A stretch of 64,000 nt of DNA from Candidatus Bathyarchaeia archaeon (GCA_038882655.1 JAVZNT010000001.1:1-64000); one strand, 5' to 3'. Shown: positions 9,358 through 31,903, counted from the first letter of the stretch. Notes: a model not told the origin generated them from the sequence alone. Numbers and translations are program-made.

Positions 9358-10304
9358 AAAAACTCGGAGTCGCCGTCATCGGAACCGGGTTCTGGGGTAG
9401 AAACCACGCGAGAGTTTTCACCGAACTGGACGAAACAGAGCTTTTGGCCGTTTGTGATATTGATGCTGAAAGAGCAAAGGGCGTCGCTAAACAATTTGGC
9501 GTTAAAGCTTACTCTAATGCAGCAAAAATGCTGAAAAGAAAAGATGTAGACGCTGTCAGCGTCTGCACGTGGTCGACAAGCCTTGCAAAAGAGGCATTAA
9601 AGGCATTAAAGGCTGGAAAGCATGTTTTGGTTGAGAAGCCTATGGCTGCCAGCTCGAAACAGGCGGAAACTTTGCTGAAAACAGCGGAAAAGGAAGGATT
9701 ACACCTTTCTGTCGGTTTTTTGATGCGTTTTATTCCCGGGCTTCAATACATCAGAAAAACTATTGAAAGCCAAGATATGGGTGAGCTTGTTTGCGCCACA
9801 GCTAAAAGGGTTTCAGAATGGCCTGAAAGAATAGGAGATGTTGGAGTAGTGAAAGACTTGGCAATTCATGACATAGACGTGATGCGCTGCCTGTTTAACG
9901 ACGACCCAATGGCGGTTTATGCAAAAACTGGGAATATGAAACATAGGAAGTTTGAGGATTACGCCCATATAATGCTAACTTTCGAGCATGGAAAAAACGC
10001 TTTTATCGAGGCAAATTGGCTAACCCCTTACAAGACAAGAGTGCTGGTGGTGACTGGAAGCAGAGCCATAGCAAAACTTGACTACATCACACAAGAGTTA
10101 ACAATAGAGACGGCGGAAAAAACCGTTCAGCCAAGAATTCCATGGCAAGAGCCTCTAAAGCTTGAGCTTCAGCACTTTGCAAGATGCGTTTTTGGGAAGG
10201 AAAAACCTTTAATAACTGGCTGGGATGGTTTAAGGGCTTTAAAAATTGCTGAAGCTGCGCTCAAATCATCTAAAACTGGCAGACTTGTTAAACTTAAGAA
10301 ATAG
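9354..10304 (+). CDS. Gfo/Idh/MocA oxidoreductase (probable nucleotide-sugar 3-dehydrogenase)
   Basis: GTGFWG, HVLVEKP, GVVKDLAIHDID; overlaps upstream stop (ATGA). Confidence 0.9.
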   Translation: MKKLGVAVIGTGFWGRNHARVFTELDETELLAVCDIDAERAKGVAKQFGVKAYSNAAKMLKRKDVDAVSVCTWSTSLAKEALKALKAGKHVLVEKPMAASSKQAETLLKTAEKEGLHLSVGFLMRFIPGLQYIRKTIESQDMGELVCATAKRVSEWPERIGDVGVVKDLAIHDIDVMRCLFNDDPMAVYAKTGNMKHRKFEDYAHIMLTFEHGKNAFIEANWLTPYKTRVLVVTGSRAIAKLDYITQELTIETAEKTVQPRIPWQEPLKLELQHFARCVFGKEKPLITGWDGLRALKIAEAALKSSKTGRLVKLKK

Positions 10305-10590
10305 GCTGCTTCCCTTTCAGGTTGAATGGCTTCCCTCCAGAGAGAATCTTTTCCGGGATTTTTTCCTTCCACTTTTTGAGGAATGGCAAATCTTCATTTT
10401 CTTTGCGCAGTTCGTCAGGAAGCATTTCTGGAATTTCATCGCGGATGGGATACCATCTTAGGCATTTTGGACAAACAATTAAGCCTTCAACAATCTCGTC
10501 TTTTTCCTCAAAGATGTAAAGCTCCAGCGGGTGGTGTTTATCGATGGGACACGCGAGTATCTCCATCAGTCTTCTTTTAATTTTTCGCAC
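10294..10590 (-). CDS. Trm112-family methyltransferase activator
   Basis: LMEILACPID...EGLIVCPKCLRWYPIRDEIPEML. Confidence 0.88.
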   Translation of the reverse strand: MRKIKRRLMEILACPIDKHHPLELYIFEEKDEIVEGLIVCPKCLRWYPIRDEIPEMLPDELRKENEDLPFLKKWKEKIPEKILSGGKPFNLKGKQPIS

Positions 10591-10636
10591 CTCCTTTAAA
10601 CTAAGACTTTACATAGCCATCAGTATATAAAAGCAT

Positions 10637-11524
10637 TCAATTTCCTTTAGGATTCTTGACAGACACATTGTGGTTTGAATGTGCCCTAATATCCAACACA
10701 ATCTGGTACCAGTTTGGACCAGTTGTGCGGACAACTCTGCCGAAGGGAATTTCAAATAGTGCTCCCAAAGCTTCAAGTCTTTTTGAAACCTTAACTCTAG
10801 CCTTTTCAACGGCATTTTCCCTCTTTATGGCATGTTCAAAATTGTAATAATGTATCCATCCTTCTCCATTTCTTAAGGCTGAGAGGGCGTAGGGCAAATA
10901 TTCAAAGGCTTTTTCTGGCAGTGGCATCAGCACTCTGTCGGCTACGTTATGTAATATTTTTTGGACTATTTCTTTGGCGTCTCCTTCTATTGGGATAACT
11001 TTTCCAAAGGCTTTGTTCAGCCTAATATTTTCCCTCATGTATTGAATGGCTATGGGGTTGATGTCTATCGAGTAGATTTTTGCAGCGTTTGAGTGTTTGG
11101 CAACCACTAAGGAGAAGCACCCTACCCCAGCAAACATGTTCACGATGGTTTCTCCATCCCCAACAAGTTTGGCAATCCGCATCCTCTCATAGAAAAGTCT
11201 AGGCGAAAAATAGCACTTATTCATGTCCACTGAAAATAGGCATCCAGACTCTTTATGGATGGTTATTGTTCTTTTTTCTCCGGCTATATGCTCCAGTTTC
11301 CTAAGCCTATAATCCCCGTAAACAGGGCTTGTCTGCGCCAAGACAGTTTTAACGTTTTTATGAACTTTCATGATGGTTTCAGCAATTATTTGGCTATACT
11401 TCGCGGATTTTTCAGTCAAACGTATGATGGCTATGTCCCCAACAATATCGTAAGAATTGTAGATGTTAGGTAATTCCTCTGGTGGAAGAATTTCCAACAA
11501 GAGTGTCTTTAAGCGCTTTTTCAT
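10637..11524 (-). CDS. Trm5/Met10+-family tRNA G37 methyltransferase
   Basis: YDIVGDIAII, YFSPRL..ER, NMFAGVG.F, DRVLMPLP. Confidence 0.88.
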   Translation of the reverse strand: MKKRLKTLLLEILPPEELPNIYNSYDIVGDIAIIRLTEKSAKYSQIIAETIMKVHKNVKTVLAQTSPVYGDYRLRKLEHIAGEKRTITIHKESGCLFSVDMNKCYFSPRLFYERMRIAKLVGDGETIVNMFAGVGCFSLVVAKHSNAAKIYSIDINPIAIQYMRENIRLNKAFGKVIPIEGDAKEIVQKILHNVADRVLMPLPEKAFEYLPYALSALRNGEGWIHYYNFEHAIKRENAVEKARVKVSKRLEALGALFEIPFGRVVRTTGPNWYQIVLDIRAHSNHNVSVKNPKGN

Positions 11525-11602
11525 TGCTGGGCCTCACTACGATATTAGTGGTATTGGAAATGCTTAAAAGCAAAAACCCCTCTGTAATGGGAGAGTGATA
11601 TC

Positions 11603-11770
11603 ATGGAAAAAATAACAACCGGAATCGTTTACGAGTGTCTGCGCTGTGGGGCAAGGGTTTCTACAGAAGAGCTTGAACTTCGTGGCGGGGAAATAAAATG
11701 CACCGTGTGCGGCTACCGGGTCTTGAAAAAAATAAGGCCGCCAGTTGTTAAACGTATCCAAGCAAAATAG
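11603..11770 (+). CDS. rpoP: DNA-directed RNA polymerase subunit P (Rpo12); absent from ORF track
   Basis: Manual translation MEKITTGIVYECLRCGARVSTEELELRGGEIKCTVCGYRVLKKIRPPVVKRIQAK: CxxC..CxxCG zinc ribbon. Confidence 0.92.
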   Translation: MEKITTGIVYECLRCGARVSTEELELRGGEIKCTVCGYRVLKKIRPPVVKRIQAK

Positions 11771-11828
11771 TGTCCAGTAAGTTAATTTTTGAGGCCCAGT
11801 GTTGAAAGCTTAAGCTTCAAAGGCTAGT

Positions 11829-12137
11829 TTAGAATAGTTCTCTTTCCCCTATTTTGCGTAGGGCTCTTCCTCTAAGCTTTATTGCCGGTCCAACAACTTC
11901 TTCTGGCTGTTTTTCAGTTGTCTTTCTCTTGACGGTTTCTCCACAGATTCCTCGTGGAAGGAGTCTTCTTTTTGTGCAAAGCGCGTATGAACAATTTGCC
12001 ACATTGCACATGTCTTCAGTCCAGCGGCACCAAACTCCGTTTCGGCGGTAAACAGCAGCATTTTTACCACACTTAAAGAGTTCACATGTGGGAGAACACA
12101 TCTTTACCTGCGCCAATGTGGATACAACCTTTCTCAA
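11829..12137 (-). CDS. Cys-rich hypothetical protein
   Basis: Eight Cys in about 55 aa (CSPTC..C..WC..C..C..C..C) and a basic tail. Confidence 0.65.
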   Translation of the reverse strand: MRKVVSTLAQVKMCSPTCELFKCGKNAAVYRRNGVWCRWTEDMCNVANCSYALCTKRRLLPRGICGETVKRKTTEKQPEEVVGPAIKLRGRALRKIGERELF

Positions 12138-12231
12138 TTATTCTAAAATCTTAGTTTCCACAGCTTTCTCTTGTAATATGTTCGCAACATTTTGATATAA
12201 AGTTTTTCCCATAAAACTCAATATTTAAACT

Positions 12232-14340
12232 CTAACTTGAAACTTTGCCCGATTTAAATCGTCTCCCCCTCACAATTTCTATTATTGCAACTAGCACTAT
12301 CGTGGCAAGGATTAAAAGGGTCATGGCAAACTTGCCTGTGTCAACCAGCAAACCTGCTAAAATAACATACTTTCCCAGTTTAACCAAAATCGGATTTGAA
12401 TAATCTCTTTTCTCGCCAATATACATTATAAGCGTAGCTTCCGGCAGGTTCTGATTTGCCAAATAAACTTTTATGGTTAATGTTCCGCCAATTTCTTTAA
12501 AAGTGGCTATGCCGTCGGCTCCCGTAACGTTTGAGCGGATTTTGACGCCGTTTCTTTCTAGGGTTACGTTTGCGTTTGGAATTGGTTGTCCAAAATAGTC
12601 AACAACTTTAACAGTAATTGGTAGATTGTAAAGGATGCAATAAAATGGTGATGTAGTGTTTTCGCCAAATAACACAACCGGCTCCTTTGTTTCATTCAAT
12701 AGTATTCCGTCAAAATAGACCTTGACATGATATTTTCCGAAAATACAGTTGAGGACAGCGTTTCCGTTGCGATCCGTGCGATTAATATACTTTGCGCCAA
12801 CCTCTAAATCAAATGCTTCAACGGTGGCACCATTTATAGGGTTGCCTTCGCCGTCGAAAACAGTTACATGCATGGGAAATACCGGGCAAGTTATGTTTAG
12901 GTCATTCCATGCGCGTGGCTCCATCTTGTAGACCGTTTGAATGAAATTTTTTCCGTAGCGCAAGGCAATAATTGTATGGTTTACATTCGGCAAAAGTGAG
13001 CGAAACTGTGCGGTTCCCGTTATGTCGGTTAGGATAAAATTAACATATTCGTCGTTTTTTCCATCCAAATCTCTGGTAAAATTGCAAGATAAGGTTACAT
13101 TTACAAATGGAATAGTTATTGCCGTATTTTGCGCGCTCACCACTCTTATTCTAAGGTTTGTAAGCTGGCACGCGATGTTAAACGTTTCTTCTCGATCTAT
13201 ACGATGCAAGGAAGTTTGGTTGACTTTAACTCCCTTATAATACGCGGTGAAGTTGTATTCGCCAACTTCTAGCGTTAGACTTGCAAAACCAGTTCCGTTG
13301 CTTACAACATCATTGTAGGTTTTGTTTGCCCACAGGTCATACGTCCTTAAGGTAACATTTGAAACAGTTTCACCGGCGAGGTTACGCGTATAAATTTCAA
13401 TTTTGAAGCCTGGAACGGTGAAGTTTTGAATGTCTGCGGGCGTTTTCCTTGTTATACTTGATATGGATGTTATGTTGACTTTGTATGCTCCTATCGTTGC
13501 GTTTTCTGGAATACGCCAGTCTGCGTAGTGAATTGTTCCGTTGTCATCCGCCATAAGGTCTATGGAGTGATGCAGGTCTTTTCCCACTATTGTTAGGGTA
13601 ACATTTTCACGAGGAGTATACACCGCTTTAATATCTACTATTTGACGTCTGTGGTACTCTGTTGAGTTTGTTAAACCTATAAAGAAGGTTGTTGTGGCAA
13701 GTGTTGCATTAAAGAATACCCGATATGTTCCAGTGATATTAGTGCGCGCATCAGAGAAGTTGCCCGGGTAAGAGATTGTTACGTTTCCGCTTCCAACATT
13801 TGAAGTTTGGACGTTAAATATGTCCGTGTATGTTTTGTTATTCGGTGCTTGGACCGTGATGTTTGCGCCATAAGCTTGGCTGGCTTGTCCCCCAGTTATG
13901 TTTATGAAAATTTTAACTTCGTCTCCTTCTTGAAGTTGGCGTTTTTCAAGCGGTTTTGGGGCGTCTGTGTCAAGCGAATATGAAGTTAAAACTGTAAATG
14001 TTGCTCTATGACGTTCTCCCGTGCTTAAATCAATTATTGTTATGTTATGGGCACCTTGCCTTGCAGGAGGAATCGTAATAGATACATTGACGAAATTTCC
14101 TTCAGCATTTCCGCTGGTTCTGTTTTCGTTGTCAAATTGTATCACGAATTCTCCATTTGGAGTTGTTACGTTAGCAACCACTTGAACGTTTGTTCCCACA
14201 AATCCGGAAGAGGGAGTTATGGAGATTATCTTTGTTTCAGCCTTCAAGTGGGGTGTAAACAAAATTGTTGTGAGAATGGAAATTAAAAGGGTAAGCATAA
14301 TTATCAGATGTTTAACTTTTTTGGGGGTGTTTTGTGGCAA
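12232..14340 (-). CDS. Secreted, membrane-anchored surface glycoprotein with Ig-like/carboxypeptidase-regulatory-like repeats
   Basis: N-terminal signal peptide, many N-x-S/T sequons, VxVxDxxGxPIxNAxV repeats, C-terminal TM followed by basic tail. Confidence 0.8.
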   Translation of the reverse strand: MPQNTPKKVKHLIIMLTLLISILTTILFTPHLKAETKIISITPSSGFVGTNVQVVANVTTPNGEFVIQFDNENRTSGNAEGNFVNVSITIPPARQGAHNITIIDLSTGERHRATFTVLTSYSLDTDAPKPLEKRQLQEGDEVKIFINITGGQASQAYGANITVQAPNNKTYTDIFNVQTSNVGSGNVTISYPGNFSDARTNITGTYRVFFNATLATTTFFIGLTNSTEYHRRQIVDIKAVYTPRENVTLTIVGKDLHHSIDLMADDNGTIHYADWRIPENATIGAYKVNITSISSITRKTPADIQNFTVPGFKIEIYTRNLAGETVSNVTLRTYDLWANKTYNDVVSNGTGFASLTLEVGEYNFTAYYKGVKVNQTSLHRIDREETFNIACQLTNLRIRVVSAQNTAITIPFVNVTLSCNFTRDLDGKNDEYVNFILTDITGTAQFRSLLPNVNHTIIALRYGKNFIQTVYKMEPRAWNDLNITCPVFPMHVTVFDGEGNPINGATVEAFDLEVGAKYINRTDRNGNAVLNCIFGKYHVKVYFDGILLNETKEPVVLFGENTTSPFYCILYNLPITVKVVDYFGQPIPNANVTLERNGVKIRSNVTGADGIATFKEIGGTLTIKVYLANQNLPEATLIMYIGEKRDYSNPILVKLGKYVILAGLLVDTGKFAMTLLILATIVLVAIIEIVRGRRFKSGKVSS

Positions 14341-14507
14341 GGTTCTCTCCTCATCGCATTCGAATTGTAAAACTTCTAATGCTCAGAATGTTTTAAACTT
14401 TACCTTTTTCTTTTCGATTTAAGATTTAAATTATGAATTTTTAAACTCTTATGGCGATTAATTTAAATCATTAACACGCGAGATTACACATACATAGGTG
14501 TCTTGCT

Positions 14508-15689
14508 ATGATCAACGAAATTCTAGCTTTGGTCGAGAAGCATGAACGTTGGCGTGGGAAAGAATGCCTAAATCTTATTCCGTCAGAGAATGTTATGAGC
14601 CCAGCTGTGCGTAGCCTCTTAAGCTCTGAGTTTGGTCACCGCTACACTGCCAAAGACCACTTTTATATGGGTACGAGGTTTATGGATGAGGTTGAGCAGT
14701 TTGGGGAAGAACTGGCGAAAGAAGTTTTTGGAGTTGAAACTGCTGATTTGCGTCCGCTTTCTGGACACGTTGCTGACATGATTTTTGTGGCTTGTTTCTC
14801 TAAGCCCGGCGATGCGCTCATGTGTGTCTCGCCAGAAGACGGTGGCTACCCCGGATTATGGCACGACGGATTGGCCGGACTTTTGGGTTTAAGGGTGGTC
14901 CCTTTTCCCTTTGTGAAGGACACTATGAACATTGATGTTGGAAAAACCGAAGAAACCATTAAGCGTGTAAAGCCTAAACTCATAATTTTTGGAGCAAGCC
15001 TCATAACCTTTCCCCACCCCGTTAAAGAGTTAGCCAACATTGCCCGTGAAAATTGTGCATGTGCGGGTTTTGATGGTTCCCATGTTTTGGGGCTTATTGC
15101 TGGAAAGCGCTTTCAAGACCCTTTAAGGGAGGGCGCATGTGCCCTATTTGGCTCTACACACAAGTCCTTCTTCGGACCGCAAGGCGGCATAATTCTCGCT
15201 GATAAAGAGCATGGCGAAGTAATGAAGGCTAAAATTTACCCCAGGTTTGTGGACAACGCCCATTGGAACCGCATTGCAGCATTAACTTTGGCTCTTGCCG
15301 AAATGAAGGAGTTTGGCAAAGAATATGCCGAACAAGTCATCCGTAACGCGAAGGCTTTGGCTAAAAGCCTGCACGAGTATGGCTTTCCAGTTAAATGCCC
15401 ACATTTAGGATTTACTCAGTCCCACCAAGCTATCCTAGATTTTGGAAATTACGAGCGGGGTAGAGAGATGGCTGAAAAACTTCAGCGAGCAAACATAATT
15501 GTTGACTGTGTTATAAGGCTTGGAACATGCGAGGTTACGAGGCGTGGAATGAAGGAGGAGGAGATGGCAAAAATAGCCGAGCTTGTTAAAAGGACAGTTT
15601 TAGATGACGAAAATCCAGAGACTATTAAGCATGAAGTTGCTAAGCTATGCTCAGAATTTCAGGACATTGAATACTGTTTTAAGCGGTGA
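14508..15689 (+). CDS. glyA: Serine hydroxymethyltransferase
   Basis: LNLIPSEN, DGSHVLGLIAG, STHKSFFGPQGG (PLP lysine), IRLGT.EVTRRG. Confidence 0.93.
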   Translation: MINEILALVEKHERWRGKECLNLIPSENVMSPAVRSLLSSEFGHRYTAKDHFYMGTRFMDEVEQFGEELAKEVFGVETADLRPLSGHVADMIFVACFSKPGDALMCVSPEDGGYPGLWHDGLAGLLGLRVVPFPFVKDTMNIDVGKTEETIKRVKPKLIIFGASLITFPHPVKELANIARENCACAGFDGSHVLGLIAGKRFQDPLREGACALFGSTHKSFFGPQGGIILADKEHGEVMKAKIYPRFVDNAHWNRIAALTLALAEMKEFGKEYAEQVIRNAKALAKSLHEYGFPVKCPHLGFTQSHQAILDFGNYERGREMAEKLQRANIIVDCVIRLGTCEVTRRGMKEEEMAKIAELVKRTVLDDENPETIKHEVAKLCSEFQDIEYCFKR

Positions 15690-15757
15690 TAAAGGGCACT
15701 TTTATAAAATCGTCTAAGTTTTTAATTGTGGAAAAGCTATTTCATGTGGCGTTAGCT

Positions 15758-24125: not shown

Positions 24126-26069
24126 TTAGGCTTTTTCTTCTCTCTCTAGGAATCCTGTTAAAAATATTGCGTACTCGCATGGATGCTCGTTTTGTAGAAG
24201 GGACTTTATGATTTTTATTTTCCCTTTCTTTCCATGGCTTACCCGTGAGATTATGTATTCGATTGTTTTTTTGCGGAGGCTGCAGAGCCACGTTTTTTGT
24301 CCTGTTTTTACAAGTTTGTAGTATGGGCAGCTTTTGTACTTGAGAGTGAAGCCTCCCTCAAAATACTCTATTTCAACTTCTACGCTAAGTTCTCTATACA
24401 TATCCGTAATTCTTTCACCCACCTCCCTTATCGTCCATGGATAGTCCTCTGGGAATAGCTCGTCAAGTTGTTCTTTTTCTACAGCGAATGCTTCCTCCAC
24501 AGAGTTGCATGACATGCCCTCGATCAATGTTTGCATAAGCTTTTTCCGTGGCAGCGGCTCAAGCATTGGCTTTTCTAACATCTTTAGTTTGAAGCTGAGG
24601 AGATTTTGGAAAGCTGTTGTCGTGATTTCATAGCCCAGTTCTCTGAACATGGATTCTATTAGAACTCTTTGACTGTTCATCACGAGAGGGTCTATACGCT
24701 TGAAAATTATGGTAAAGTGTTCATCATCTACAAAGCGAACCTCAGCGTCTGGCTGGGTTGCATTAATATTTTTGAGGATGAAATTCTTTGCAAGCCTCCT
24801 AATCTTTTCAGGGTCATTTCTTGCTAACATGCGGATGGCATTAGATATGCGCGTCCCAGTTGCACGATATATCTCCTCAAACTTCCGCTTATCACTTTCA
24901 TAGACTTTTAAAGCGAAAGAGTTGAAAAGGTCGCGCGGAATAGGAATAACATCCAAGAATTGTTTGCCTATAACTTGGAAAAGGCTTAACTCGGCTAACT
25001 GGTCTTGAAGACTTTGGTCTTCCGCCCCCACATATTGAATTGTCATGTTGACTGTTGCGTGTTCTGTTGAATAGTTTAGTGTCTTCCACCCTCGAGTTGC
25101 CAACATAACTGATAAGGCCGCCACAGACATTCGTGTTATTGAAGCTGATGCGGCTTGGAAAACAAGCTCCAAGACGTTTTCATCTTTCTCAATTATAACC
25201 TTTGCCTGCCTAAACCAGTTCATTTTAACAAATGCTGATAATAATGCCTTTACAAAATCTTTTGGTTCCTTTGGGAACTCGTCTATTCCTAAAACGATCC
25301 TTGCATCCTCTATGAGGGTGCCCAAGTCTGATATTGGCTCTTCTAAGTGTTTTTCCGCCCAGCTCATGAAAGCTGGTCCAACAAGCATTAGGGTGCTCTT
25401 GAAAAGCCCGGGAGTGACGTTTGCTAGTTCCTTCTCAATTTGTTGTTCAAGGAATTCTCCGAACTCTTTCCTCCTTAAGGGGTAGACTTCTGGACGCACC
25501 ATTTTTACGGCTATATCTTCACCCATGACACGAATATCGAAGTAGACTCCAATGCCTTCCAATATCGTGGCAACGTAAAAGGCGGTTATTATAGGTAAAT
25601 GCTTGAAAACTTTTGGTCTTAAAATCGCTATGTTGTCAATCTCGCTGTATGATGGTATTTCATACATGTTTGTGAGATTTCTAATTTCCTCTAGGACGAT
25701 GAGGAATTCTTTGAAGTTTGATGGAGGCTTCCAGCTGATGGAACTTTTAAGGATTTCTATTGTGTTTTTTGCTTCTGTTTTTTGCTCTTTAATGAAATCC
25801 TCGATTGTTTTGTTTCCTATAGCTATCTCTAAGAGGCTGTCTAGATTTCTTCTGCTAATTGAGGCTAGGTCAAGGGCTTCCCTAAGTTTAGTCTGCTCGT
25901 TTATTTTGGCCTTTATGGCGCAATCGTCGCATGAACCAACCTTATCCACCCTAAGTAGGGTTTCTAGGGCTTTTTCGAGGACGCGACTTTTTGTGCCATA
26001 TGTCTTTGCCAGTTCTTCAAGTATGTCGTTTGCCTTTCTTGTTATTGTGGTGTGTAAGTGAACTGACAT
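24126..26069 (-). CDS. Putative regulator: N-terminal ribbon-helix-helix plus about four V4R/MetOD-like domains
   Basis: VHLHTTI-TRKANDILEELAK-GTKSRVLEKALETLL (beta-alpha-alpha), CDDC, repeated units, C-terminal YKSCPY..LC..HPCEY. Confidence 0.6.
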   Translation of the reverse strand: MSVHLHTTITRKANDILEELAKTYGTKSRVLEKALETLLRVDKVGSCDDCAIKAKINEQTKLREALDLASISRRNLDSLLEIAIGNKTIEDFIKEQKTEAKNTIEILKSSISWKPPSNFKEFLIVLEEIRNLTNMYEIPSYSEIDNIAILRPKVFKHLPIITAFYVATILEGIGVYFDIRVMGEDIAVKMVRPEVYPLRRKEFGEFLEQQIEKELANVTPGLFKSTLMLVGPAFMSWAEKHLEEPISDLGTLIEDARIVLGIDEFPKEPKDFVKALLSAFVKMNWFRQAKVIIEKDENVLELVFQAASASITRMSVAALSVMLATRGWKTLNYSTEHATVNMTIQYVGAEDQSLQDQLAELSLFQVIGKQFLDVIPIPRDLFNSFALKVYESDKRKFEEIYRATGTRISNAIRMLARNDPEKIRRLAKNFILKNINATQPDAEVRFVDDEHFTIIFKRIDPLVMNSQRVLIESMFRELGYEITTTAFQNLLSFKLKMLEKPMLEPLPRKKLMQTLIEGMSCNSVEEAFAVEKEQLDELFPEDYPWTIREVGERITDMYRELSVEVEIEYFEGGFTLKYKSCPYYKLVKTGQKTWLCSLRKKTIEYIISRVSHGKKGKIKIIKSLLQNEHPCEYAIFLTGFLEREEKA

Positions 26070-26111
26070 TATGCTTCACGTGTCTTACTATTTTAAAGGC
26101 TGCTTTTAAAC

Positions 26112-26147
26112 ATGTTCACGTTTTTCTGAAAATGTACATATGAACAC
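26112..26147. promoter_or_regulatory. TGT(A/T)CA boxes upstream of the RHH/V4R gene
   Basis: ATGTTCA 26112, ATGTACAT 26132, TGAACA 26141. Confidence 0.45.
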
Positions 26148-26164
26148 ATAAAAAATGGAGGGAG

Positions 26165-27943
26165 CTATCTTCGTGCCAGCAAAGATTCAATCGGTGCAAG
26201 TCTTGTTCCCTTTCTTGTCGTAAGGGCGTCGGCGACTCTTTTAACAGCCAACATGTAGGCGGCTACGCGCATGTTTACATTATACTGTTTGGAAAGCTCT
26301 AGCACATCATGGAAAGCTTTTGTTACTGTTTCTTTTAGTTTGTTCCGCACTTCCTCCTCTGTCCAATAGTAGTTCATCTGGTTCTGCACCTGCTCAAAGT
26401 AACTGACAATAACGCCACCAGAATTCGCCAGAATGTCTGGTATGACAAAAACTCCTTTTTTGAAGAGAATTTCGTCGGCTTCTGGGGTTGTTGGTCCGTT
26501 AGCTCCTTCCGCCACAATTTTTGCCTTTATATTGTTGGCGTTTGTTTTTGTTATTTGGTTCTCTAATGCTGCCGGCACAAGAATGTCACACTCTAGTTCT
26601 AATAGTTGCTCGTTTGTTATGAATGTAGTTTCAGGATAATCAACCACCGAGCCTGTTCTGTTTTTGTGCTCCAGCACTTTTTCTGGGTCTAGTCCGTTGG
26701 GGTTGTATATTCCGCCTTTTGAGTCTGAAACTGCTACGATTTTGCATCCAACTTCATGTAGTAGGCGTGCTGCGTGATATCCAACATTTCCGTAGCCCTG
26801 CACAGCTACTGTTGCGCCTTTAAGGTTTATTCCTAGATATTTGGCTGCCTCTATCACCGTGTACATTAAGCCTCTTGAAGTTGCCTCGCTTCTTCCACGG
26901 GAACCACCAACACCGACGGGTTTGCCTGTTACGACTCCAAAGGCTGGATAGCCAACAATTTCGCTGTATTCATCCATTATCCAGGCCATTGTCTGCGCGT
27001 CTGTGTAGACGTCCGGCGCCGGCACATCGATGTATGGACCTATAAATTTCGCAATAGCCCTCACATATCCCCTTGTTAGGCGTTCCAATTCAGCCTTAGA
27101 CATTTCTTTAGGATTGCATCTGATTCCACCTTTTCCGCCTCCTAGCGGTAGTCCTACAACCGCTGTTTTCCACGTCATCCATGCCGCCAGCGCCGTAACC
27201 TCGTCTAATGTCAGCTCCGGGTGGTATCGGATGCCGCCCTTAGTTGGACCTAACACATCATTATACTGTACACGGTAACCCGTGAAAACTTGAATGCTTC
27301 CGTCGTCCATAACCACTGGAATATTAACTATTAGGGTGCGCATAGGACGCTTCAAAATTTCGTGGATGCCGTGGTCAAGTTTCAGTTTTTCAGCGGCGAT
27401 GTCCAACTGTTTAAGGGCGGCTTCATAAGGGTTTGGCGTAACAGCTAATGGTGCCAAAGTGTCTATTTTAACAAATACGGCTGTTTGGAGTTTCTCGACA
27501 AGATTTGTTAGGATTTGCCTTGCCACTTCGCCATTTCCCTCTTTGCTTCCGTAAAACCACATGTAGGTTTCAGCAACAGCATCTTCCTTCCTTGAAAACA
27601 TTGAACCGGCAGGCGCCATTTTCGGGTTTTCGGAGAAATAGTCCACGAGGATTCGCAGCATGTTTAACTCTTCGGCGGTTAACGGCAGAAGCTTTCTTAT
27701 GGGCTCTGGCGCCTTAACATGGACATATTCAGCTTCCGTGATCTTCTTTTGGAGTTCTTCAAAAACTTTTAGAGAGTCTTCGATCGGTATCCCAAAGTTT
27801 TCTGAATATGTCGTTAGAAGGGCATAGTGAGCGGTTGTATAACTTTCTATCTTTGCGGTTAGTTCAGGCTTTTCAGCGAAGAAGTCTACCATTAACTTAA
27901 GCATTCCCAACTCTCTAGCAGAGAATTCCACAGAGTTTAGCAT
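26165..27943 (-). CDS. Glutamate dehydrogenase with 170-aa N-terminal tandem-repeat extension
   Basis: [51 protein letters not shown]. Confidence 0.92.
26475..26572. repeat. 98-bp tract identical (inverted) to 31529-31626
   Basis: Base-by-base comparison of the two gdh genes. Confidence 0.9.
26973..27028. repeat. 56-bp tract identical (inverted) to 31073-31128
   Basis: GATGTGCCGGCGCC...TGGATAATGGA is present in both gdh genes. Confidence 0.9.
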
Positions 27944-27985
27944 TTATTTTTCACCTCTTCCTGTTCTAGAGCCTTAAATAAAACT

Positions 27986-28032
27986 ATGTTCAACTATAGA
28001 AACATTATGTTCATAATGTACAAAGCTGTACA
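27986..28032. promoter_or_regulatory. Array of four TGT(A/T)CA boxes in the divergent gdh/kaiC-like promoter
   Basis: ATGTTCA 27986, ATGTTCA 28007, ATGTACA 28016, CTGTACA 28026. Confidence 0.55.
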
Positions 28033-28104
28033 ACATTAAAACATCCGAAACAACGACACAACATTTTTAATGACGCATGTAAACCATACATTCGGTGTAC
28101 CTCA

Positions 28105-28857
28105 TTGTCAAACAACCTTAGCGAAAAGCAAGCCTTCTACTCAACAGGAGTTAAAGGACTTGACAAGCTCCTCGATGGCGGATTATTATTAGGTGAGAAT
28201 GTTTTATGGGAGGTCGAATCTGGAACATTTGCAAGGGAATTTTTATACTCCTTTATGCGACAAGGCATAAATGAAGGAAAACAGGTCATATATTTGGAAT
28301 TTATCTATCCTCCTCAAGCAATCATGCTCCAATTGGAACCCCTAACCAAAACCTTGCCAGACGGCTGGGAAAAGAAACTCCTAGTGTTAGATTGTTTTTC
28401 AGAAGCCGCAGGGCAAGGCGAGTTGATATTTAACGATTTTTATGATAAAGCCCCAAGCTGGATAAGAAAAGTTCCAAGCTCAAAAGACCCAGAACGTTTC
28501 CATCACTTCTTCGGAAGAATTGAAAGAGAATTTGTTATGCCTGGAACAAGACTTGTTTTCAACAGTTTATCAATAATGGAACACAATTGGGGAAGGGATG
28601 CTGCTAAAGTCTTCTTTGGACATGTTTGTCCAGCACTATATGCTTACCAAACTCTCGCCTACTGGACTATGGCTAAAAATGCTCATCCCAAAGAGTTCTG
28701 CGCCTTAATAGAACACATGACACAAGTGGTTATAGACCTCACTAGGCAGGAGAATAAGAACTTCTTATGGATTAAGAAGGCTGGCGGAAGATATAACCCC
28801 CAGACCTACACGCGGCGGGAATACTCCGTTGATGGACTGAATATAGAAATTCTCTAG
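28105..28857 (+). CDS. KaiC/RAD55-like RecA-fold protein with degenerate Walker A
   Basis: STGVKGLDKLLDGG start, G..VIY, LLVLDCF, LVFNSL, EHMTQVVIDL; P-loop reads VESGTFAREF. Confidence 0.8.
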   Translation: MSNNLSEKQAFYSTGVKGLDKLLDGGLLLGENVLWEVESGTFAREFLYSFMRQGINEGKQVIYLEFIYPPQAIMLQLEPLTKTLPDGWEKKLLVLDCFSEAAGQGELIFNDFYDKAPSWIRKVPSSKDPERFHHFFGRIEREFVMPGTRLVFNSLSIMEHNWGRDAAKVFFGHVCPALYAYQTLAYWTMAKNAHPKEFCALIEHMTQVVIDLTRQENKNFLWIKKAGGRYNPQTYTRREYSVDGLNIEIL

Positions 28858-28865
28858 GCTTTTCG

Positions 28866-28882
28866 ATGTACAAGAATGTTCA
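28866..28882. promoter_or_regulatory. Two TGT(A/T)CA boxes 10 bp apart upstream of the glutamate-synthase-like gene
   Basis: ATGTACA 28866, ATGTTCA 28876; TATA-like TTTAAA about 25 nt downstream. Confidence 0.5.
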
Positions 28883-28967
28883 TTTTTTGTTGTTTTTAGG
28901 ATAACCTTTAAATGCGGACAAAATTTTAACCATCCTACGCGGTTTACAAACGTAAAGGTGAAAGAAA

Positions 28968-30575
28968 ATGACGGAACGCGTTTTCAGAAACAGTTCCTAC
29001 CTAAATGGAAAATCAACAACTGGAACAACAACCCGCGTCAAAGACACAAGCCCCACAAGCGGCATGTGTCCCATATGCATCCGCGACTGCCCAATAATGT
29101 GTGAAATAGGCTTGTCAGCATTCAGAGGAAGGGAAGCCCTCTATCCAGAACCCGTGCAATTCGGTTTCAGCACCGCCGGAGCCCTAAAAGACTTCGGCTT
29201 GGACTGGTCCCACTTCAACATACAAGCAGGCCTCTTCGAAGCTCATGGGATAAAGGAAGACCCCGATTTGGCGTTGTTCCCAAACGTGAACATAGAAATT
29301 AAGGTCGGAGGCATACCGCTTAAAGTCCCCATATTGTGTGGCGCTTTCGGCTCCACCGATGTTGCGAGGCTGAACTGGGAAGGCTTAGCCATAGGCACAG
29401 CCCTTTCAGGGGCCATGATAATTGTTGGAGAAAACGTTTGCGGCATGGATCCAGAAGCCCAATTCACAAACGGCAAAGTAACCTACTCAAAAGAGCTAAA
29501 GCGCAGAGTCGACCTTTTCAGAAAATTCTGGGATGGAAAATATGGCGAAATAGCCGTCCAAACAAATGTTGAAGACCAGAGGCTTGGCGTCGACGTTTAC
29601 GCCATCTCAAAGCTAGAGGTCAATGTTATAGAGAGAAAGTGGGGACAAGGCGCGAAAGCCATAGGAGGCGAGGTCCGCGTAAGAGACCTTGAAAGGGCTA
29701 TAATGCTAAAGAAAAGGGGCTACATAGTAATCCCAGACCCAGAAGACCCGGCGGTACAGCAAGCCTTTAAAGACGGCGTATTCAAATCCTTTGAGAGGCA
29801 CAGCAGAGTTGGTATACCAAAGGAGAAAAACGTCGTAGAAGACATAGAATGGCTGAGGAAACAAGGGGCAAAACATGTAACCCTAAAAACGGGCGCTTAC
29901 AGGCCGTCGGCAGTGGCATACACTTTGAAAATAGCTTCAGAAGCAAAAATTAACGCCGTATACTTTGACGGGGCTGGCGGCGGCACAGGCATGAGCCCTG
30001 TTCCAATGATGGATGAGATGGGCATCCCAACAGTTTTCCTGGAAGCCATAGTGCTTAAATGTGCCCAAATATTGAATAGGAAAGGTCGCTACGTGCCGGA
30101 CATAATTATGGCTGGAGGCTTCATAAACGAAACTCAAATTTTCAAGGCTATAGCCATGAGCAACTTTGGGGACGGACCCCTCGTAAAAGCCGTTCTCATG
30201 GGTCGTTCTCCGCTCACCGCTGTTATGAAGGCAAGTTATTTCAAACAGTTGGCTGACGAAGGAAAACTTCCAAAGGCTTTTGCCGACAAATTTGGCGCAA
30301 CTCCGGAGAAGTTCTTCATAGCTGTTCCAGAGCTAAAAGAGAAGTATGGAGAACGCTTCAAAGAAATCCCATGGGAAGCCGTAGCCCTCTATACATACTT
30401 GACAGACCGCATAGGCGTTGGGCTAAAGCAGCTCTTAGCTGGTGCCAGGAAATGGCGGCTAGACCTAATCAACAGAAACGACCTAATGAGCCTCTCAGAA
30501 CTTGCAGCCAAAGTGACTGGTATATCGTTAGCCCACGAGGCAGAAGCAGACGCTATTGAAAGAATTTTAGACTAG
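28968..30575 (+). CDS. FMN-binding glutamate synthase family protein (stand-alone synthase domain)
   Basis: IERKWGQGAKAIGGE, DGAGGGTGMSP, MAGG, N-terminal CxxCxxxCxxxC. Confidence 0.85.
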   Translation: MTERVFRNSSYLNGKSTTGTTTRVKDTSPTSGMCPICIRDCPIMCEIGLSAFRGREALYPEPVQFGFSTAGALKDFGLDWSHFNIQAGLFEAHGIKEDPDLALFPNVNIEIKVGGIPLKVPILCGAFGSTDVARLNWEGLAIGTALSGAMIIVGENVCGMDPEAQFTNGKVTYSKELKRRVDLFRKFWDGKYGEIAVQTNVEDQRLGVDVYAISKLEVNVIERKWGQGAKAIGGEVRVRDLERAIMLKKRGYIVIPDPEDPAVQQAFKDGVFKSFERHSRVGIPKEKNVVEDIEWLRKQGAKHVTLKTGAYRPSAVAYTLKIASEAKINAVYFDGAGGGTGMSPVPMMDEMGIPTVFLEAIVLKCAQILNRKGRYVPDIIMAGGFINETQIFKAIAMSNFGDGPLVKAVLMGRSPLTAVMKASYFKQLADEGKLPKAFADKFGATPEKFFIAVPELKEKYGERFKEIPWEAVALYTYLTDRIGVGLKQLLAGARKWRLDLINRNDLMSLSELAAKVTGISLAHEAEADAIERILD

Positions 30576-30646
30576 CCCCCTCCCTTTTTCTTCCCGTATT
30601 ATAGCCAACCTTTTAAGGCTTCTCAGAATAATAGGTTTGGAGGTAA

Positions 30647-31903
30647 ATGCTTATGGAGAAAAGCTATTCTGCTCTAGATACTGCACTGGAACAGTTGAGA
30701 ATAGCCGCAGAAAAACTTGAGCTCGACCCCGGACTGCATGAAATGCTAAAATATCCTAAGAGGACGCTTATGGTTTCTGTAAACATTAGGATGGACGATG
30801 GAGCCATCAAGACCTTCTTGGGGTGCCGTGTTCAGCACAACGATGCAAGGGGACCTTTTAAAGGCGGCATAAGATACCATCCAAAAGTAACTTTGGACGA
30901 AGTTACCGCATTGGCCATGTGGATGACATGGAAATGCGCTGTTGTCGACATCCCATATGGAGGAGCCAAAGGCGGAGTTTGCTGCAACCCAAAAGAGATG
31001 TCAAAAGGTGAGCTTGAACGGGTGACAAGACGGTACACAAGCCTAATCTTGGACCTTATTGGGCCGTACCGGGATGTGCCGGCGCCGGACGTCTACACAG
31101 ACGCGCAGACAATGGCCTGGATAATGGACACTTACAGCCAATTTAAAGGTTACAGTGTCCCAGAATGTGTTACTGGAAAGCCTTTAAGTGTTGGCGGTTC
31201 TGAGGGAAGGGCTGAAGCCACATCTCTTGGCGTCATGTTTTGCGCAAGAGAAGCCGCAAAAATCCTCGGACTAAAAATAAAAGATGCGGGAGTTGTGGTT
31301 CAAGGGTTTGGGAGTGTGGGGTGGAACGCCGCAAAAATAGCCTACGATTGGGGATGCAAAATATTGGGCGTAAGTGACTCCAGCGGAGGGATTTATTGCA
31401 AAGAAGGATTAAACCCCTACAAAGTTTATGAGCATAAGGCGAAGACGGGTTCCGTCTTAAACTTTGAGGATTGCAAGAACATCACTAACGAAGAACTATT
31501 GGAGCTAGACTGCGATATTTTGGTGCCAGCAGCATTAGAGAACCAAATAACAAAAACAAACGCCAACAATATAAAGGCAAAAATTGTGGCGGAAGGAGCT
31601 AACGGACCAACAACCCCAGAAGCCGATAAAGTGCTTGATGAAAAAGGGGTGTTCCTAGTTCCAGATATATTGGCGAACTCCGGCGGCGTTACGGTGAGTT
31701 ATTTTGAATGGGTTCAAAACCTAACAAGGGAGCATTGGACTCTTGAAGAGGTAAACCAGAAGCTCGAAAGAAAAATGGTGAGAGCATTCAACGACATCTA
31801 CAAAACCTCGAGGGATGAGAAAGAACCTATGCGAACAGCCGCCCTAATGCTGGGAGTTGGACGGGTGGCTGAGGCAATAAAGACTTTAGGTTTATGGCCT
31901 TAA
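30647..31903 (+). CDS. gdhA: Glutamate dehydrogenase (canonical length)
   Basis: [40 protein letters not shown]. Confidence 0.93.
   Translation: MLMEKSYSALDTALEQLRIAAEKLELDPGLHEMLKYPKRTLMVSVNIRMDDGAIKTFLGCRVQHNDARGPFKGGIRYHPKVTLDEVTALAMWMTWKCAVVDIPYGGAKGGVCCNPKEMSKGELERVTRRYTSLILDLIGPYRDVPAPDVYTDAQTMAWIMDTYSQFKGYSVPECVTGKPLSVGGSEGRAEATSLGVMFCAREAAKILGLKIKDAGVVVQGFGSVGWNAAKIAYDWGCKILGVSDSSGGIYCKEGLNPYKVYEHKAKTGSVLNFEDCKNITNEELLELDCDILVPAALENQITKTNANNIKAKIVAEGANGPTTPEADKVLDEKGVFLVPDILANSGGVTVSYFEWVQNLTREHWTLEEVNQKLERKMVRAFNDIYKTSRDEKEPMRTAALMLGVGRVAEAIKTLGLWP
31073..31128. repeat. 56-bp tract identical (inverted) to 26973-27028
   Basis: Direct comparison. Confidence 0.9.
31529..31626. repeat. 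98-bp tract identical (inverted) to 26475-26572
   Basis: Direct comparison. Confidence 0.9.

Follow-up and report, generated by a model that had tools for sequence, protein, structure and literature searches.

A candidate autoregulated locus in Bathyarchaeia combining a large regulator, an extended glutamate dehydrogenase and an inactivated KaiC-like protein

Gene content of the locus

The window, a 64,000-nucleotide stretch of DNA from a Candidatus Bathyarchaeia archaeon (GCA_038882655.1), was found to carry, between RFC-S and GINS-MCM, five genes arranged as two divergent arms; the left flank is RFC-L/RFC-S and the right is GINS/MCM. The host lineage is a small group of hot-spring archaea among the Bathyarchaeia. 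On the minus strand lie P0001 (24126-26069; 647 aa), a regulator candidate without a Pfam family at threshold and with a weak match to MetOD1, and P0002 (26165-27943; 592 aa), a glutamate dehydrogenase (GDH) with approximately 168 extra N-terminal residues. The plus strand carries P0003 (28105-28857; 250 aa), a PAXNEB/KaiC-like protein with an inactivated KaiC/RecA fold, P0004 (28968-30575; 535 aa), an FMN-type glutamate-synthase-related protein with a partial Glu_synthase (PF01645) match, and P0005 (30647-31903; 418 aa), a plain GDH of ordinary length. The two GDHs of the cluster are 64% identical. Gene calls and flanks agree with the gene content and divergent layout given in the original prediction.

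P0001 is a large, previously unclassified regulator whose relatives are rare (42 matches at E ≤ 0.001 among 1.84 billion representative proteins), and no NCBIfam family matched it. Its architecture comprises a basic beta-alpha-alpha N-terminus, a GSCxDC motif (C47/C50) which is kept even in distant homologues, and approximately four alpha-beta-beta-alpha-beta-beta modules (V4R/Bet3/H-NOX-like). Residues 1-45 (25935-26069, minus strand; pI 9.3) form a putative ribbon-helix-helix (RHH)-like DNA-binding head, in which the pattern hLHTTI...YG-T/S-K...E is conserved across the family and a monomer model places helices at residues 11-24 and 27-43 after an unassigned N-terminal stretch. Residues 1-60 matched no Pfam family at E ≤ 10, RHH_1 included; a six-frame search of the genome with PF01402 at E ≤ 10 returned four other places, the P0001 N-terminus not being among them, and the distant homologue P0284 reached E 0.0021 and 18.4 bits against RHH_1, below the 20.5 cut-off. 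As RHH_1 is silent on this N-terminus, the assignment of a DNA-binding fold is drawn from the pattern and the model.

In a predicted model of mediocre quality (pLDDT 69, pTM 0.33), residues 362-498 of P0001 gave fold matches in the middling Z range to Bet3 (Z 8.5, rmsd 4.0, 125 residues aligned), to H-NOX (Z 7.6) and to the phenol-sensor domains of DmpR (Z 8.2), PoxR (Z 7.4) and MopR (Z 7.3), as did residues 64-191 to archaeal TRAPPC3 (Z 7.8). Foldseek returned E 0.02-0.1 for V4R/Bet3/H-NOX-type folds. The C-terminal module (residues 508-647; 24129-24548, minus strand) had no row in the fold comparison and is MetOD1/V4R-like, matching MetOD1 at E 0.0015 and 17-19 bits, below the Pfam cut-off of 23.8; the V4R profile (PF02830) gave no match to P0001. 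The module bears C581, C596 and C631, conserved in all seven sequences spanning the region, and three conserved cysteines are described for MetOD1/V4R in PMC5847659, the equivalence standing at the level of description. Modules distantly related to the N-terminal one occur in fusion with receiver domains, and on the modelled folds P0001 looks like a sensor. The metabolic theme does not extend across the family, since neither GDH nor nitrogen genes adjoin the distant homologues of P0001.

In P0002, the ELFV_dehydrog_N and ELFV_dehydrog domains cover residues 200-575 (197.5 and 298 bits), and NCBIfam GdhA_Arch scored 643.8 bits, below its cut-off of 750. The N-extension (residues 1-168; 27440-27943, minus strand) consists of a helical module of approximately 80 aa, duplicated in tandem (internal repeat E 5e-8), and is acidic, with a net charge of -7 and a pI of 5.0. 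It matches 257 database clusters and, among the 120 listed, all are GDHs of 576-631 aa. Its predicted model (pLDDT 84, pTM 0.83) found no counterpart in the PDB, with a best Foldseek E of 0.2 and none of 48,161 chains at Z ≥ 5, and no similarity of this domain to P0001 or P0003 was detectable.

P0003 scored 33.7 bits against PAXNEB (cut-off 28) over residues 9-77 only, 26.4 bits against KaiC PF06745 (cut-off 26.6) and far under the cut-offs of TIGR03880/03881. Its PDB matches fell between E 1e-4 and 1e-2 overall, including SSO2452 (E 1.3e-4) and KaiC (E 3e-3). At the Walker A position (residues 37-44, 28213-28236) the sequence is VESGTFAR, aligned with GPPGTGKT in the genome's own KaiC paralogue, and the Walker A lysine is absent at that position in all 34 orthologous matches examined; a Walker-B-like LLVLDCFSE is kept. 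Judging from these residues, the P-loop of P0003 is inactivated, and the loss in P0003 and 34 orthologues bears out the earlier description of a dead KaiC-like protein.

P0004 scored 40.3 bits against PF01645 (cut-off 20.4), covering profile positions 185-296 of 369 only. Its invariant columns include an N-terminal C34-x2-C37-x3-C41-x3-C45 and a DGAGGGTGMSP motif. NCBIfam gave no family for it, and neither sequence nor family profile retrieved a GltB from the PDB. No amidotransferase domain was found in P0004, nor GATase_2 in its genome (84% complete), where one weak GXGXG match and a GltD-like 481-aa ORF on contig C11 were detected. Genes of this type are widespread by themselves (74 of 301 phylum genomes), and P0004 alone occupies the RFC/GINS site in relatives without the core described below. 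Elsewhere its homologues adjoin GlnA, NrpR, aminotransferase and GltD/PyrK-like genes; in genomes G200 and G167 the homologue shares an operon with genes for GltD-like and PyrK-like proteins, and AOR genes are close by in two distant loci. P0005 has ELFV Pfam domains at 192.3 and 280.9 bits and a GdhA_Arch score of 563.5 bits, below the 750 cut-off.

The domain assignments first proposed therefore stand in part. The extended GDH, the KaiC-like protein lacking the Walker A lysine and the MetOD1/V4R-like C-terminus of the regulator hold, but the RHH was not confirmed by Pfam RHH_1, and a 647-aa protein with approximately four V4R/Bet3-like modules is not a simple RHH-V4R regulator.

Operator boxes in the intergenic regions

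TGT(A/T)CA boxes had been noted as common to three intergenic regions, and they were indeed found clustered in three of the four spacers. The first, IG1 (26070-26164), is the promoter region of P0001 and contains TGTTCA (26113-26118), TGTACA (26133-26138) and TGAACA (26141-26146), with a conserved TTTAAAAG (plus-strand positions 26103-26110, on the minus strand) lying 2 nt from the box at 26113-26118. The conserved pattern is TGTACA-N~17-TGAACA-N2-TTTAAAAG; 33 sequences were compared, and every one had 2-4 boxes. The divergent promoter region IG2 (27944-28104) has four boxes (27987-27992, 28008-28013, 28017-28022 and 28027-28032). A conserved TTTCTATA (plus-strand positions 27995-28002, on the minus strand) is situated between the boxes at 27987 and 28008, and a conserved TTTTTAA (28064-28070) faces the KaiC-like gene; both are putative TATA elements by our own assignment. 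The IG2 consensus is TGTaCA-N4-TGTACA-N3-TGNACA-N15(TTTCTATA)-TGAACA, with 3-4 boxes in each of 36 sequences. In IG3 (28858-28967), the promoter region of P0004, tandem boxes at 28867-28872 and 28877-28882 are 10 bp apart centre to centre, with TTTAAAT (28907-28913) 24 nt downstream of them, and at least two boxes were present in 27 of 28 sequences. IG4 (30576-30646), upstream of P0005, has none, and none were found in 23 of 24 sequences.

Over the whole window the enrichment of ATGTWCA is mild (23 found against 14.75 ± 3.85 expected, with 23 reached in 6 of 100 shuffles), and eight of the 23 matches fall within the 366 bp of IG1-IG3. The 1.02 Mb genome contains 217 matches, and these three spacers are the only three clusters, defined as at least two matches within 40 bp. 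Hexamer pairs with spacers of 2-5 nt number seven genome-wide, four of them in this locus, with approximately 1.3 pairs expected. Across 35 related loci, hexamer density falls from 22.1 per kb within these spacers to 1.04 per kb beyond them, and the boxes keep their positions while the neighbouring sequence drifts. This conservation reaches a locus whose P0001 is 51% identical, and the boxes accompany the relocated cores of loci L077 and L081 into new neighbourhoods.

Of 13 genomes that lack full-length P0001, 12 have no box pair upstream of P0004; the exception is G053, whose KaiC-like gene has only recently become a pseudogene. P0004 bears the pair only where P0001 is present or recently lost. 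Two metagenome loci encoding P0001 homologues of approximately 519 aa (P0249/P0250 type, 24-27% identical) have three TGAACA/TGTTCA boxes before their own gene, two of which flank a TATA-like run at a spacing of 22-23 bp. The operator is unique genome-wide and co-varies with P0001, and the TGT(A/T)CA-type motif appears from these comparisons to be a trait of the P0001 family.

Joint inheritance of a three-gene core

Distribution was followed in 41 relatives, in 301 genomes of the phylum and in 35 species loci. Thirteen of the 41 relatives have the N-extension, and exactly those 13 have P0003; P0001 is found in the same 13 and as three further pieces at contig ends. Only four of the phylum genomes contain full-length P0001, and the N-extension and orthologues of P0003 are confined to those four as well. 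The KaiC-like gene adjoins the extended GDH in 35/35 species loci and P0001 lies downstream of that GDH in 32, the remaining three contigs ending inside the GDH. The core block behaves as a unit and in G029 is inverted relative to its flanks. The three core components are inherited and lost together, with identical distribution across genomes. Because the carriers are related and the cluster passes down as one block, their matching distributions make the observations look more independent than they are, and independent weight comes only from the decay cases (G053 and G261) and the relocated cores (L077 and L081).

In the decay cases the core is lost and the second GDH stays, and this GDH is missing from both relocated cores. 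In L077 the KaiC arm runs on into a gene for an ammonium transporter, and in L081 it bears a PyrK-like flavoprotein, each in place of the genes that follow here. The transporter in that one locus, together with GlnA, NrpR and aminotransferase near P0004 homologues, is the nitrogen-metabolism context cited for the proposed regulon. The functional core is three genes (P0001, extended GDH and P0003), not five. The proposed five-gene module is thus reduced: co-occurrence in related genomes extends to the regulator, the extended GDH and the dead KaiC, but not to the full set, the glutamate-synthase-like gene and the second GDH both being separable.

A candidate regulon and its alternatives

As far as sequence comparison can indicate, the locus is probably a local, autoregulated regulon that is confined to one lineage and serves the glutamate/2-oxoglutarate/ammonium node in some Bathyarchaeia. 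That P0001 would bind the boxes is considered highly likely; whether its signal is nitrogen or glutamate status is judged an even question.

Bathyarchaeia are thought to ferment peptides, and the regulon could instead concern amino-acid catabolism and redox, with the two GDHs deaminating glutamate, P0004 and Nfn/GltD-like partners handling electrons, and the P0001 cysteines (C47/C50, C581/C596/C631) sensing redox or metal, not glutamate/2-oxoglutarate. The retention of GSCxDC in distant homologues and the three conserved C-terminal cysteines are consistent with this, as are the invariant four-Cys motif of P0004, its operons with PyrK-like and GltD-like electron-transfer proteins, the flavoprotein in the KaiC arm of L081 and the AOR genes near P0004 in two distant loci. 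However, the ammonium transporter encoded on the L077 KaiC arm and the GlnA, NrpR and aminotransferase genes adjoining P0004 homologues argue against this account, which shares its regulatory architecture with the preferred regulon, differs from it only in the signal, and is rated unlikely. Both GDHs might also form mixed hexamers, as an allosteric enzyme like that of Thermus thermophilus GdhA/GdhB, with the N-domain and dead KaiC as regulatory subunits and P0001 setting expression only. There is a precedent in GdhA4GdhB2, with its regulatory, catalytically inactive subunit and AMP-sensory partner (PMC9570180), the cluster does hold two such similar GDH genes, and the acidic N-domain fits protein contact better than DNA contact. 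This is nevertheless improbable, given a second GDH that lies outside the co-inherited core in both the decayed and the relocated cases, and given full catalytic Pfam domains in both GDHs (catalytic residues judged by eye), so that neither looks inactive.

It is very improbable that a different transcription factor uses the boxes, or that they are a generic promoter feature, with P0001 not a DNA binder and the cluster kept only by descent. The failure of RHH_1 to detect P0001 and the relatedness of all carriers, most of which share the RFC and GINS-MCM flanks, would suit such a reading, but there are no box clusters elsewhere in the genome, the boxes upstream of P0004 vanish where P0001 is absent, and boxes both travel with the core to the L077 and L081 neighbourhoods and recur before distant P0001 homologues in unrelated contexts.

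Enzymes that inform a regulator of metabolite state have their model in the action of RocG/GudB on the LysR-type activator GltC. The RocG/GudB-GltC-gltAB system of Bacillus subtilis (PMC6794564) is similar to the present locus in that a single transcription factor at the glutamate/2-oxoglutarate node is linked with GDH and a glutamate-synthase gene. Here, in contrast, the regulator is unrelated and has no LysR HTH, the GDH has a dedicated extra domain, an ATPase-dead KaiC-like third protein co-occurs, and all genes are in one locus with its own operator. Thermus GdhA/GdhB with its AMP-sensing partner likewise has two adjacent GDH paralogues and a non-GDH sensory partner; there, regulation falls to a catalytically inactive GDH subunit that has no additional domain, whereas here both GDHs look complete and the additions are the N-domain and a dead KaiC. 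Archaeal signalling proteins contain inactivated KaiC-like (iKaiC) domains, named in a table footnote of PMC5847659 citing Makarova et al. 2017, which resemble P0003 in a RecA/KaiC fold with destroyed P-loop and a signalling context, but P0003 stands alone as a protein of 250 aa and is linked to GDH and a V4R-type regulator. DmpR, PoxR, MopR and the methanogen MetOD1 output domains are similar to P0001 in the V4R/H-NOX/Bet3-type fold predicted for it, at alignments in the middling range (Z 7.3-8.2 to 6iy8, 5frw and 7vqf), and in the three cysteines already cited. They join one sensor domain to an AAA+ sigma-54 activator or REC, whereas P0001 has approximately four tandem modules behind a small beta-alpha-alpha head and no ATPase. 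Archaea encode individual GltS domains as separate ORFs (PMC8097209). P0004 resembles such split glutamate synthases and GltD/Nfn-type modules through the FMN-site part of PF01645 and its operons in two genomes, and differs in that no PDB GltB was found, one third of the Pfam model was matched, an N-terminal Fe-S motif (CxxCxxxCxxxC) is present and its genome yielded no amidotransferase.

RHH repressors (omega of pSM19035, MetJ, Arc, CopG) bind arrays of short (pseudo)palindromic repeats, direct or inverted and in helical phase, which overlap the core promoter and provide autoregulation, and in PutA an RHH domain is linked to an amino-acid dehydrogenase. The repeat arrays and proposed autoregulation of the present locus are alike, whereas RHH membership of P0001 is putative, the promoters are of the archaeal TATA/BRE type and the sensor part is far larger. 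In the regulon favoured here, P0001 would be a one-component transcription factor whose head dimers would each occupy one (pseudo)palindromic TGT(A/T)CA hexamer, the spacing of 9-10 or approximately 21 bp putting the hexamers on one DNA face. Dimer assembly may be governed by the four V4R/Bet3-like modules through binding of a small molecule, of a partner protein or of the two together. As to the sign of regulation at each promoter, which we infer, two boxes flank the putative TATA of the extended GDH, so that binding should shut that promoter, and a box abuts the TATA/BRE of the P0001 promoter, for which autoregulation is proposed; at the P0004 and KaiC-like promoters, with boxes 24-30 bp upstream of TATA, the effect may be opposite or weaker.

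P0001, the extended GDH and P0003 may touch each other, a proposal held tentatively. The acidic, duplicated GDH N-domain and the ATPase-dead P0003 would then be obligate partners of P0001. As in trigger-enzyme systems, they would most likely contact P0001 directly and so pass on to it the state of the enzyme or of a metabolite.

Gene content and operator boxes

The region between 24126 and 31903 of the window was found to contain five genes arranged as two divergent arms, and gene calls across this stretch bear out that part of the original prediction. One arm consists of P0001 (24126–26069, minus strand, 647 aa), which has no Pfam or NCBIfam family except a sub-threshold C-terminal match to MetOD1, and P0002 (26165–27943, minus strand, 592 aa), a complete glutamate dehydrogenase (GDH) behind approximately 168 additional residues. 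The other arm encodes P0003 (28105–28857, plus strand, 250 aa), with weak matches to PAXNEB and KaiC, P0004 (28968–30575, plus strand, 535 aa), whose match to Glu_synthase (PF01645) is confined to the third around the FMN site, and P0005 (30647–31903, plus strand, 418 aa), an ordinary GDH. The locus is flanked by RFC-L and RFC-S on the left and by GINS and MCM on the right. Close homologues bear source names by which the organism falls within Bathyarchaeia. The sequencing runs containing it are hot-spring metagenomes; two carry a metatranscriptomic label and are probably DNA, with contigs of mixed strains in which depth cannot rank the genes.

Hexamers of the form TGT(A/T)CA (boxes), mostly with an A immediately 5′, had been noted in three intergenic regions, and this was confirmed: three occur upstream of P0001, four in the divergent P0002–P0003 spacer and two upstream of P0004, with none in the P0005 upstream spacer of the window. 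The motif ATGTWCA is barely enriched over the window as a whole (23 matches against 14.75 expected; 23 was reached in 6 of 100 shuffles). Across the 1.02 Mb genome, 217 matches form only three clusters, which are exactly the three spacers of the locus. Four of the seven close hexamer pairs in the genome lie here (about 1.3 pairs expected), and hexamers occur at 22.1 per kb in the spacers of 35 related loci vs. 1.04 per kb elsewhere.

Box conservation was assessed in the window and 35 species-level loci. The divergent spacer has the consensus TGTaCA-N4-TGTACA-N3-TGNACA-N15-TGAACA, with an invariant TTTCTATA inside the N15, and holds three or four boxes in all 36 sequences; centre-to-centre spacings of 10, 9, and 21 bp place the boxes on one helix face. 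The P0001 spacer reads TGTACA-N~17-TGAACA-N2-TTTAAAAG in 33 sequences, with two to four boxes apiece. At least two boxes, ~24 nt upstream of TTTAAAT, are present in 27 of 28 P0004 spacers, and 23 of 24 P0005 spacers have none. By position and conservation, TTTCTATA, TTTAAAAG, TTTAAAT, and TTTTTAA are the putative TATA boxes of four promoters. The hexamers form a private operator shared by four promoters.

Immediately before the P0004 start (window 28941–28961) is a conserved leader, GGTTTACAAACGTAAAGGTGA, which contains the inverted repeat TTTAC-aaac-GTAAA, adjoining the Shine-Dalgarno sequence. It is also retained in four relatives without P0001 (G030, G025, G053, and G261) and may serve P0004 as an additional control element of older origin.

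Inheritance of the three-gene core

The five genes had been proposed to form a single module. P0001, the extended GDH and P0003 do co-occur, in the same 13 of 41 relatives, but P0004 is separable, with homologues in 74 of 301 phylum genomes (47–89% identity). The GDH N-terminal domain (N-domain) and P0003 were each found in 13 of the 41 relatives, the genomes being identical, and P0001 in 16, the additional matches (G003, G005, and G010) being pieces at contig ends. Among the 301 phylum genomes, full-length P0001, N-domain and P0003 orthologues occur in the same four (G000, G029, G249, and G296), a true P0003 orthologue being defined by E < 1e-100. Of the remaining 139 P0003 matches, that of G053 consists of stop-containing pseudogene fragments (E 2e-41), and those of 138 further genomes are weak hits on KaiC paralogues (E 5e-9 or worse).

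When 35 species loci were collected via the N-domain, the KaiC-like gene was divergently adjacent to the extended GDH in all 35, P0001 followed the extended GDH in 32 (the other three contigs stop within the GDH) and P0004 with the second GDH followed the KaiC-like gene in 30 (contig ends cut three more); these and the preceding counts overstate independence because all carriers are related and the cluster is inherited as a block. The independent events are two decayed loci, two relocated loci and an inversion. The regulator, the N-domain and the inactivated KaiC-like protein are jointly present, and are jointly decayed in two loci. In the two relocated loci the place of P0004 and the second GDH in the KaiC arm is taken by an ammonium transporter (L077) or a PyrK-like flavoprotein (L081), and in G029 all five genes are inverted en bloc with respect to the flanking genes.

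Locus L081 lies in a 214-kb contig from a genome labelled Promethearchaeota archaeon (Asgard), and its core (8146–12816) has boxes and 41–66% identity. This could represent inter-phylum transfer, or a binning or labelling error. A 974-aa Pat-like acyl-CoA synthetase/GNAT acetyltransferase (12806–15730) overlaps the 3′ end of its regulator gene. In G053 the RFC-S and MCM matches (L027, 11113–13377 and 2383–5988) are each split by ~1.3–1.4 kb of unmatched sequence in frame-compatible order, and these interruptions look like inteins; the KaiC-like pseudogene of G053 belongs to this locus too. In G016 (L014, 3447–6834) an insertion of ~3.4 kb separates the P0004 homologue from the KaiC-like gene, and the box pair remains with the P0004 promoter. 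All genes of locus L079 appear as several frame-shifted pieces, with four stops in the N-domain translation, probably reflecting long-read assembly indel errors rather than decay.

P0001 as the candidate box binder

Four lines of evidence point to P0001 as the protein which binds the boxes. Its N-terminus, plausibly the sole DNA-binding part of the protein, is basic (pI 9.3) and carries the pattern hLHTTI..(helix)..YG-T-K-S..(helix), kept in homologues down to 20% identity; in the predicted model a free N-terminal stretch is followed by two helices, as in ribbon-helix-helix (RHH) proteins. The RHH fold of this head is unconfirmed because Pfam RHH_1 gives no match to it. A PDB profile search with an N-terminus-weighted family alignment returned receiver domains only, brought in by two fused homologues, and has no bearing on RHH. 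Fusions to receiver domains occur in some relatives of residues 1–190.

The boxes follow P0001 through loss and relocation. When 200 nt upstream of P0004 were compared in 13 genomes without full-length P0001, the box pair was gone in 12. The sole exception is G053, where the adjacent KaiC-like gene has become a pseudogene interrupted by stops, which points to a recent loss. The promoter of G261 downstream of the box position is near-identical to that of G029, with the boxes gone and P0001 reduced to its C-terminal 120 residues. In L077 and L081 the core lies in new neighbourhoods and the boxes have relocated along with it, the L081 regulator being 51% identical to P0001.

A metagenome scan for P0249, a distant P0001 homologue, gave no loci at first, and an alignment-based second scan gave two. 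Both encode ~519-aa homologues of the P0249/P0250 type, 24–27% identical to P0001 and without its last module, in genomic contexts unrelated to the window locus. Each has three TGAACA/TGTTCA boxes before the homologue gene, two of which flank a TATA-like run at 22–23 bp spacing. These lines argue that recognition of the boxes is characteristic of the family, whose ancestral arrangement appears to have been autoregulation via a TATA-flanking box pair. Chance or synteny alone was rejected as the origin of the boxes, given that their clusters are confined to the three spacers and that they are lost with P0001, move with the core and recur at distant homologues.

The P0001 family is rare (42 matches among 1.84 billion representatives), and a PDB sequence search with P0001 gave nothing meaningful. 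In its AlphaFold model, which is mediocre (pLDDT 69, pTM 0.33), a helix-strand-strand-helix-strand-strand unit is repeated four times (residues ~119–190, 269–346, 420–497, and 547–637). Residues 362–498 matched Bet3/TRAPP subunits (Z 8.5), the phenol-sensor domains of DmpR, PoxR, and MopR (Z 7.3–8.2) and H-NOX (Z 7.6), and residues 64–191 matched archaeal TRAPPC3 (Z 7.8), all in the tool's middling range. With this moderate fold support, the modules appear to resemble the V4R/H-NOX/Bet3 fold class. MetOD1 is linked to the same fold class, three conserved cysteines included (PMC5847659). P0001 carries C581, C596, and C631; its RHH and MetOD1/V4R memberships are unproven.

Two observations concern the cysteines and the C-terminal module. 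A GSCxDC motif at residues 45–50 (window ~25920–25937, minus strand), immediately after the putative DNA-binding head, persists in homologues of just 20–27% identity, and the two CxxC pairs of a P0001 dimer could be a metal or redox site. In G261 (L046, 7082–7444) residues 527–647 remain at 83% identity, the remaining core being gone; this Cys-bearing C-terminal module lies inside an open 202-aa frame adjoining GINS, and represents a remnant or else a module put to independent use.

Candidate partner proteins and possible control logic

An internal duplication (E 5e-8) makes up the GDH N-domain, which is acidic (net −7) and highly conserved, with 24 columns invariant across 26 sequences. Its model is confident (pLDDT 84, pTM 0.83). 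Foldseek returned no known fold (top match E 0.2) and a wide VIA search gave a top Z of 4.7, with Z ≥ 5 in none of 48,161 chains. The highest of these weak VIA rows are HTH/winged-helix domains; DNA binding by the N-domain is disfavoured because of the net charge. Profile-profile comparison with the P0001 and P0003 families gave a probability of 0.2% for both. In P0003, VESGTFAR aligns with GPPGTGKT of the genome's own canonical KaiC paralogue, and the Walker A lysine is absent from all 34 orthologous matches. P0003 would be a KaiC member by fold but not by its P-loop.

P0004 has an invariant CxxCxxxCxxxC near its N-terminus and a DGAGGGTGMSP motif; its family profile matched no GltB among solved structures. 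It stands alone at the same RFC/GINS site in the core-less relatives G184, G314, G099, and G025, and distant genomes with P0004 have no GDH within 8 kb. Homologues elsewhere adjoin GlnA, GMP synthase, NrpR, an aminotransferase or an AsnC-type ligand domain, and in G200 and G167 the homologue shares an operon with electron-transfer proteins of PyrK-like and GltD-like type. This four-gene operon is conserved (G200, L036 5111–9607; G167, L037 7928–12418) and consists of the P0004 homologue, an unannotated 212–217-aa protein, a PyrK/NfnA-like and a GltD/NfnB-like protein, and could encode an amidotransferase-free synthase complex linked to NAD(P)H or ferredoxin. Single GltS domains as separate ORFs are described for archaea (PMC8097209). 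GlnA (window 1979–2983), a GltD-like ORF and one weak match to GXGXG are present in this genome, in which GATase_2 was not found at 84% completeness. The catalytic domain of the glutamine synthetase (PF00120, E 4.5e-120) is situated 22 kb upstream of the locus and has no box clusters nearby.

In the proposed mechanism, P0001 dimers would bind single hexamers and assemble along one DNA face. At the extended-GDH promoter the boxes would bracket the TATA box and should therefore repress; at the P0001 promoter one box would abut the TATA/BRE. The boxes of the P0004 and KaiC promoters would lie upstream, the usual position of archaeal activators, and the same bound state could therefore affect GDH and P0004 oppositely, which would be the switch envisaged in the original prediction. 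Whether by ligand, by contact or by both, the bound state would be set by the V4R-like modules together with the inactivated KaiC and the acidic domain of the GDH. The case for nitrogen draws on the enzymes themselves, the L077 ammonium transporter and the genes found beside P0004 in other genomes. A redox or amino-acid-catabolic signal would agree equally well with the Cys motifs and the electron-transfer neighbours.

The logic would be similar to B. subtilis RocG/GudB-GltC trigger-enzyme control and, for the box arrays, to RHH repressors on repeat arrays; on the enzyme side, the Thermus GdhA/GdhB complex with a sensory partner offers a resemblance. No part of this locus belongs to the families of these three systems, and a literature search, supplementary material aside, found no description of the gene cluster; V4R together with RHH or with archaeal KaiC-like proteins came up in a census of two-component systems only. 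The locus is probably a one-component regulator with a local regulon, perhaps of trigger-enzyme type. Rather doubtfully, the extended GDH, ATPase-dead KaiC-like protein and multi-V4R regulator may form one metabolite-gated machine, in which the N-domain would dock on the dead KaiC ring or the regulator according to substrate or cofactor state and switch the TATA-flanking operator array, as an archaeal trigger-enzyme circuit in a three-gene cassette. Given the copy in the Promethearchaeota-labelled genome, the cassette would possibly have moved between phyla. If true, the machine would be a circuit of parts not previously seen together.

The building blocks of the locus are an uncurated regulator family, a GDH domain without a solved structural match and a stand-alone dead KaiC. 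In archaea, the control of nitrogen and amino-acid metabolism has been described for a few systems (NrpR, Lrp-type regulators, and GlnK). Bathyarchaeia are abundant and uncultured, and to our knowledge almost nothing has been established of their gene regulation. As a compact and complete test case, the locus combines an operator defined by a 6-bp box with fixed spacing at four promoters, a regulator candidate whose family is uncurated and, in the GDH N-domain and the dead KaiC, two putative partners inherited along with it. All components are amenable to recombinant in vitro work without culturing the organism. Should the N-domain and the dead KaiC pass enzyme state on to the regulator, archaea would be added to the organisms with trigger-enzyme control, and a concrete function would be assigned to inactivated KaiC proteins.
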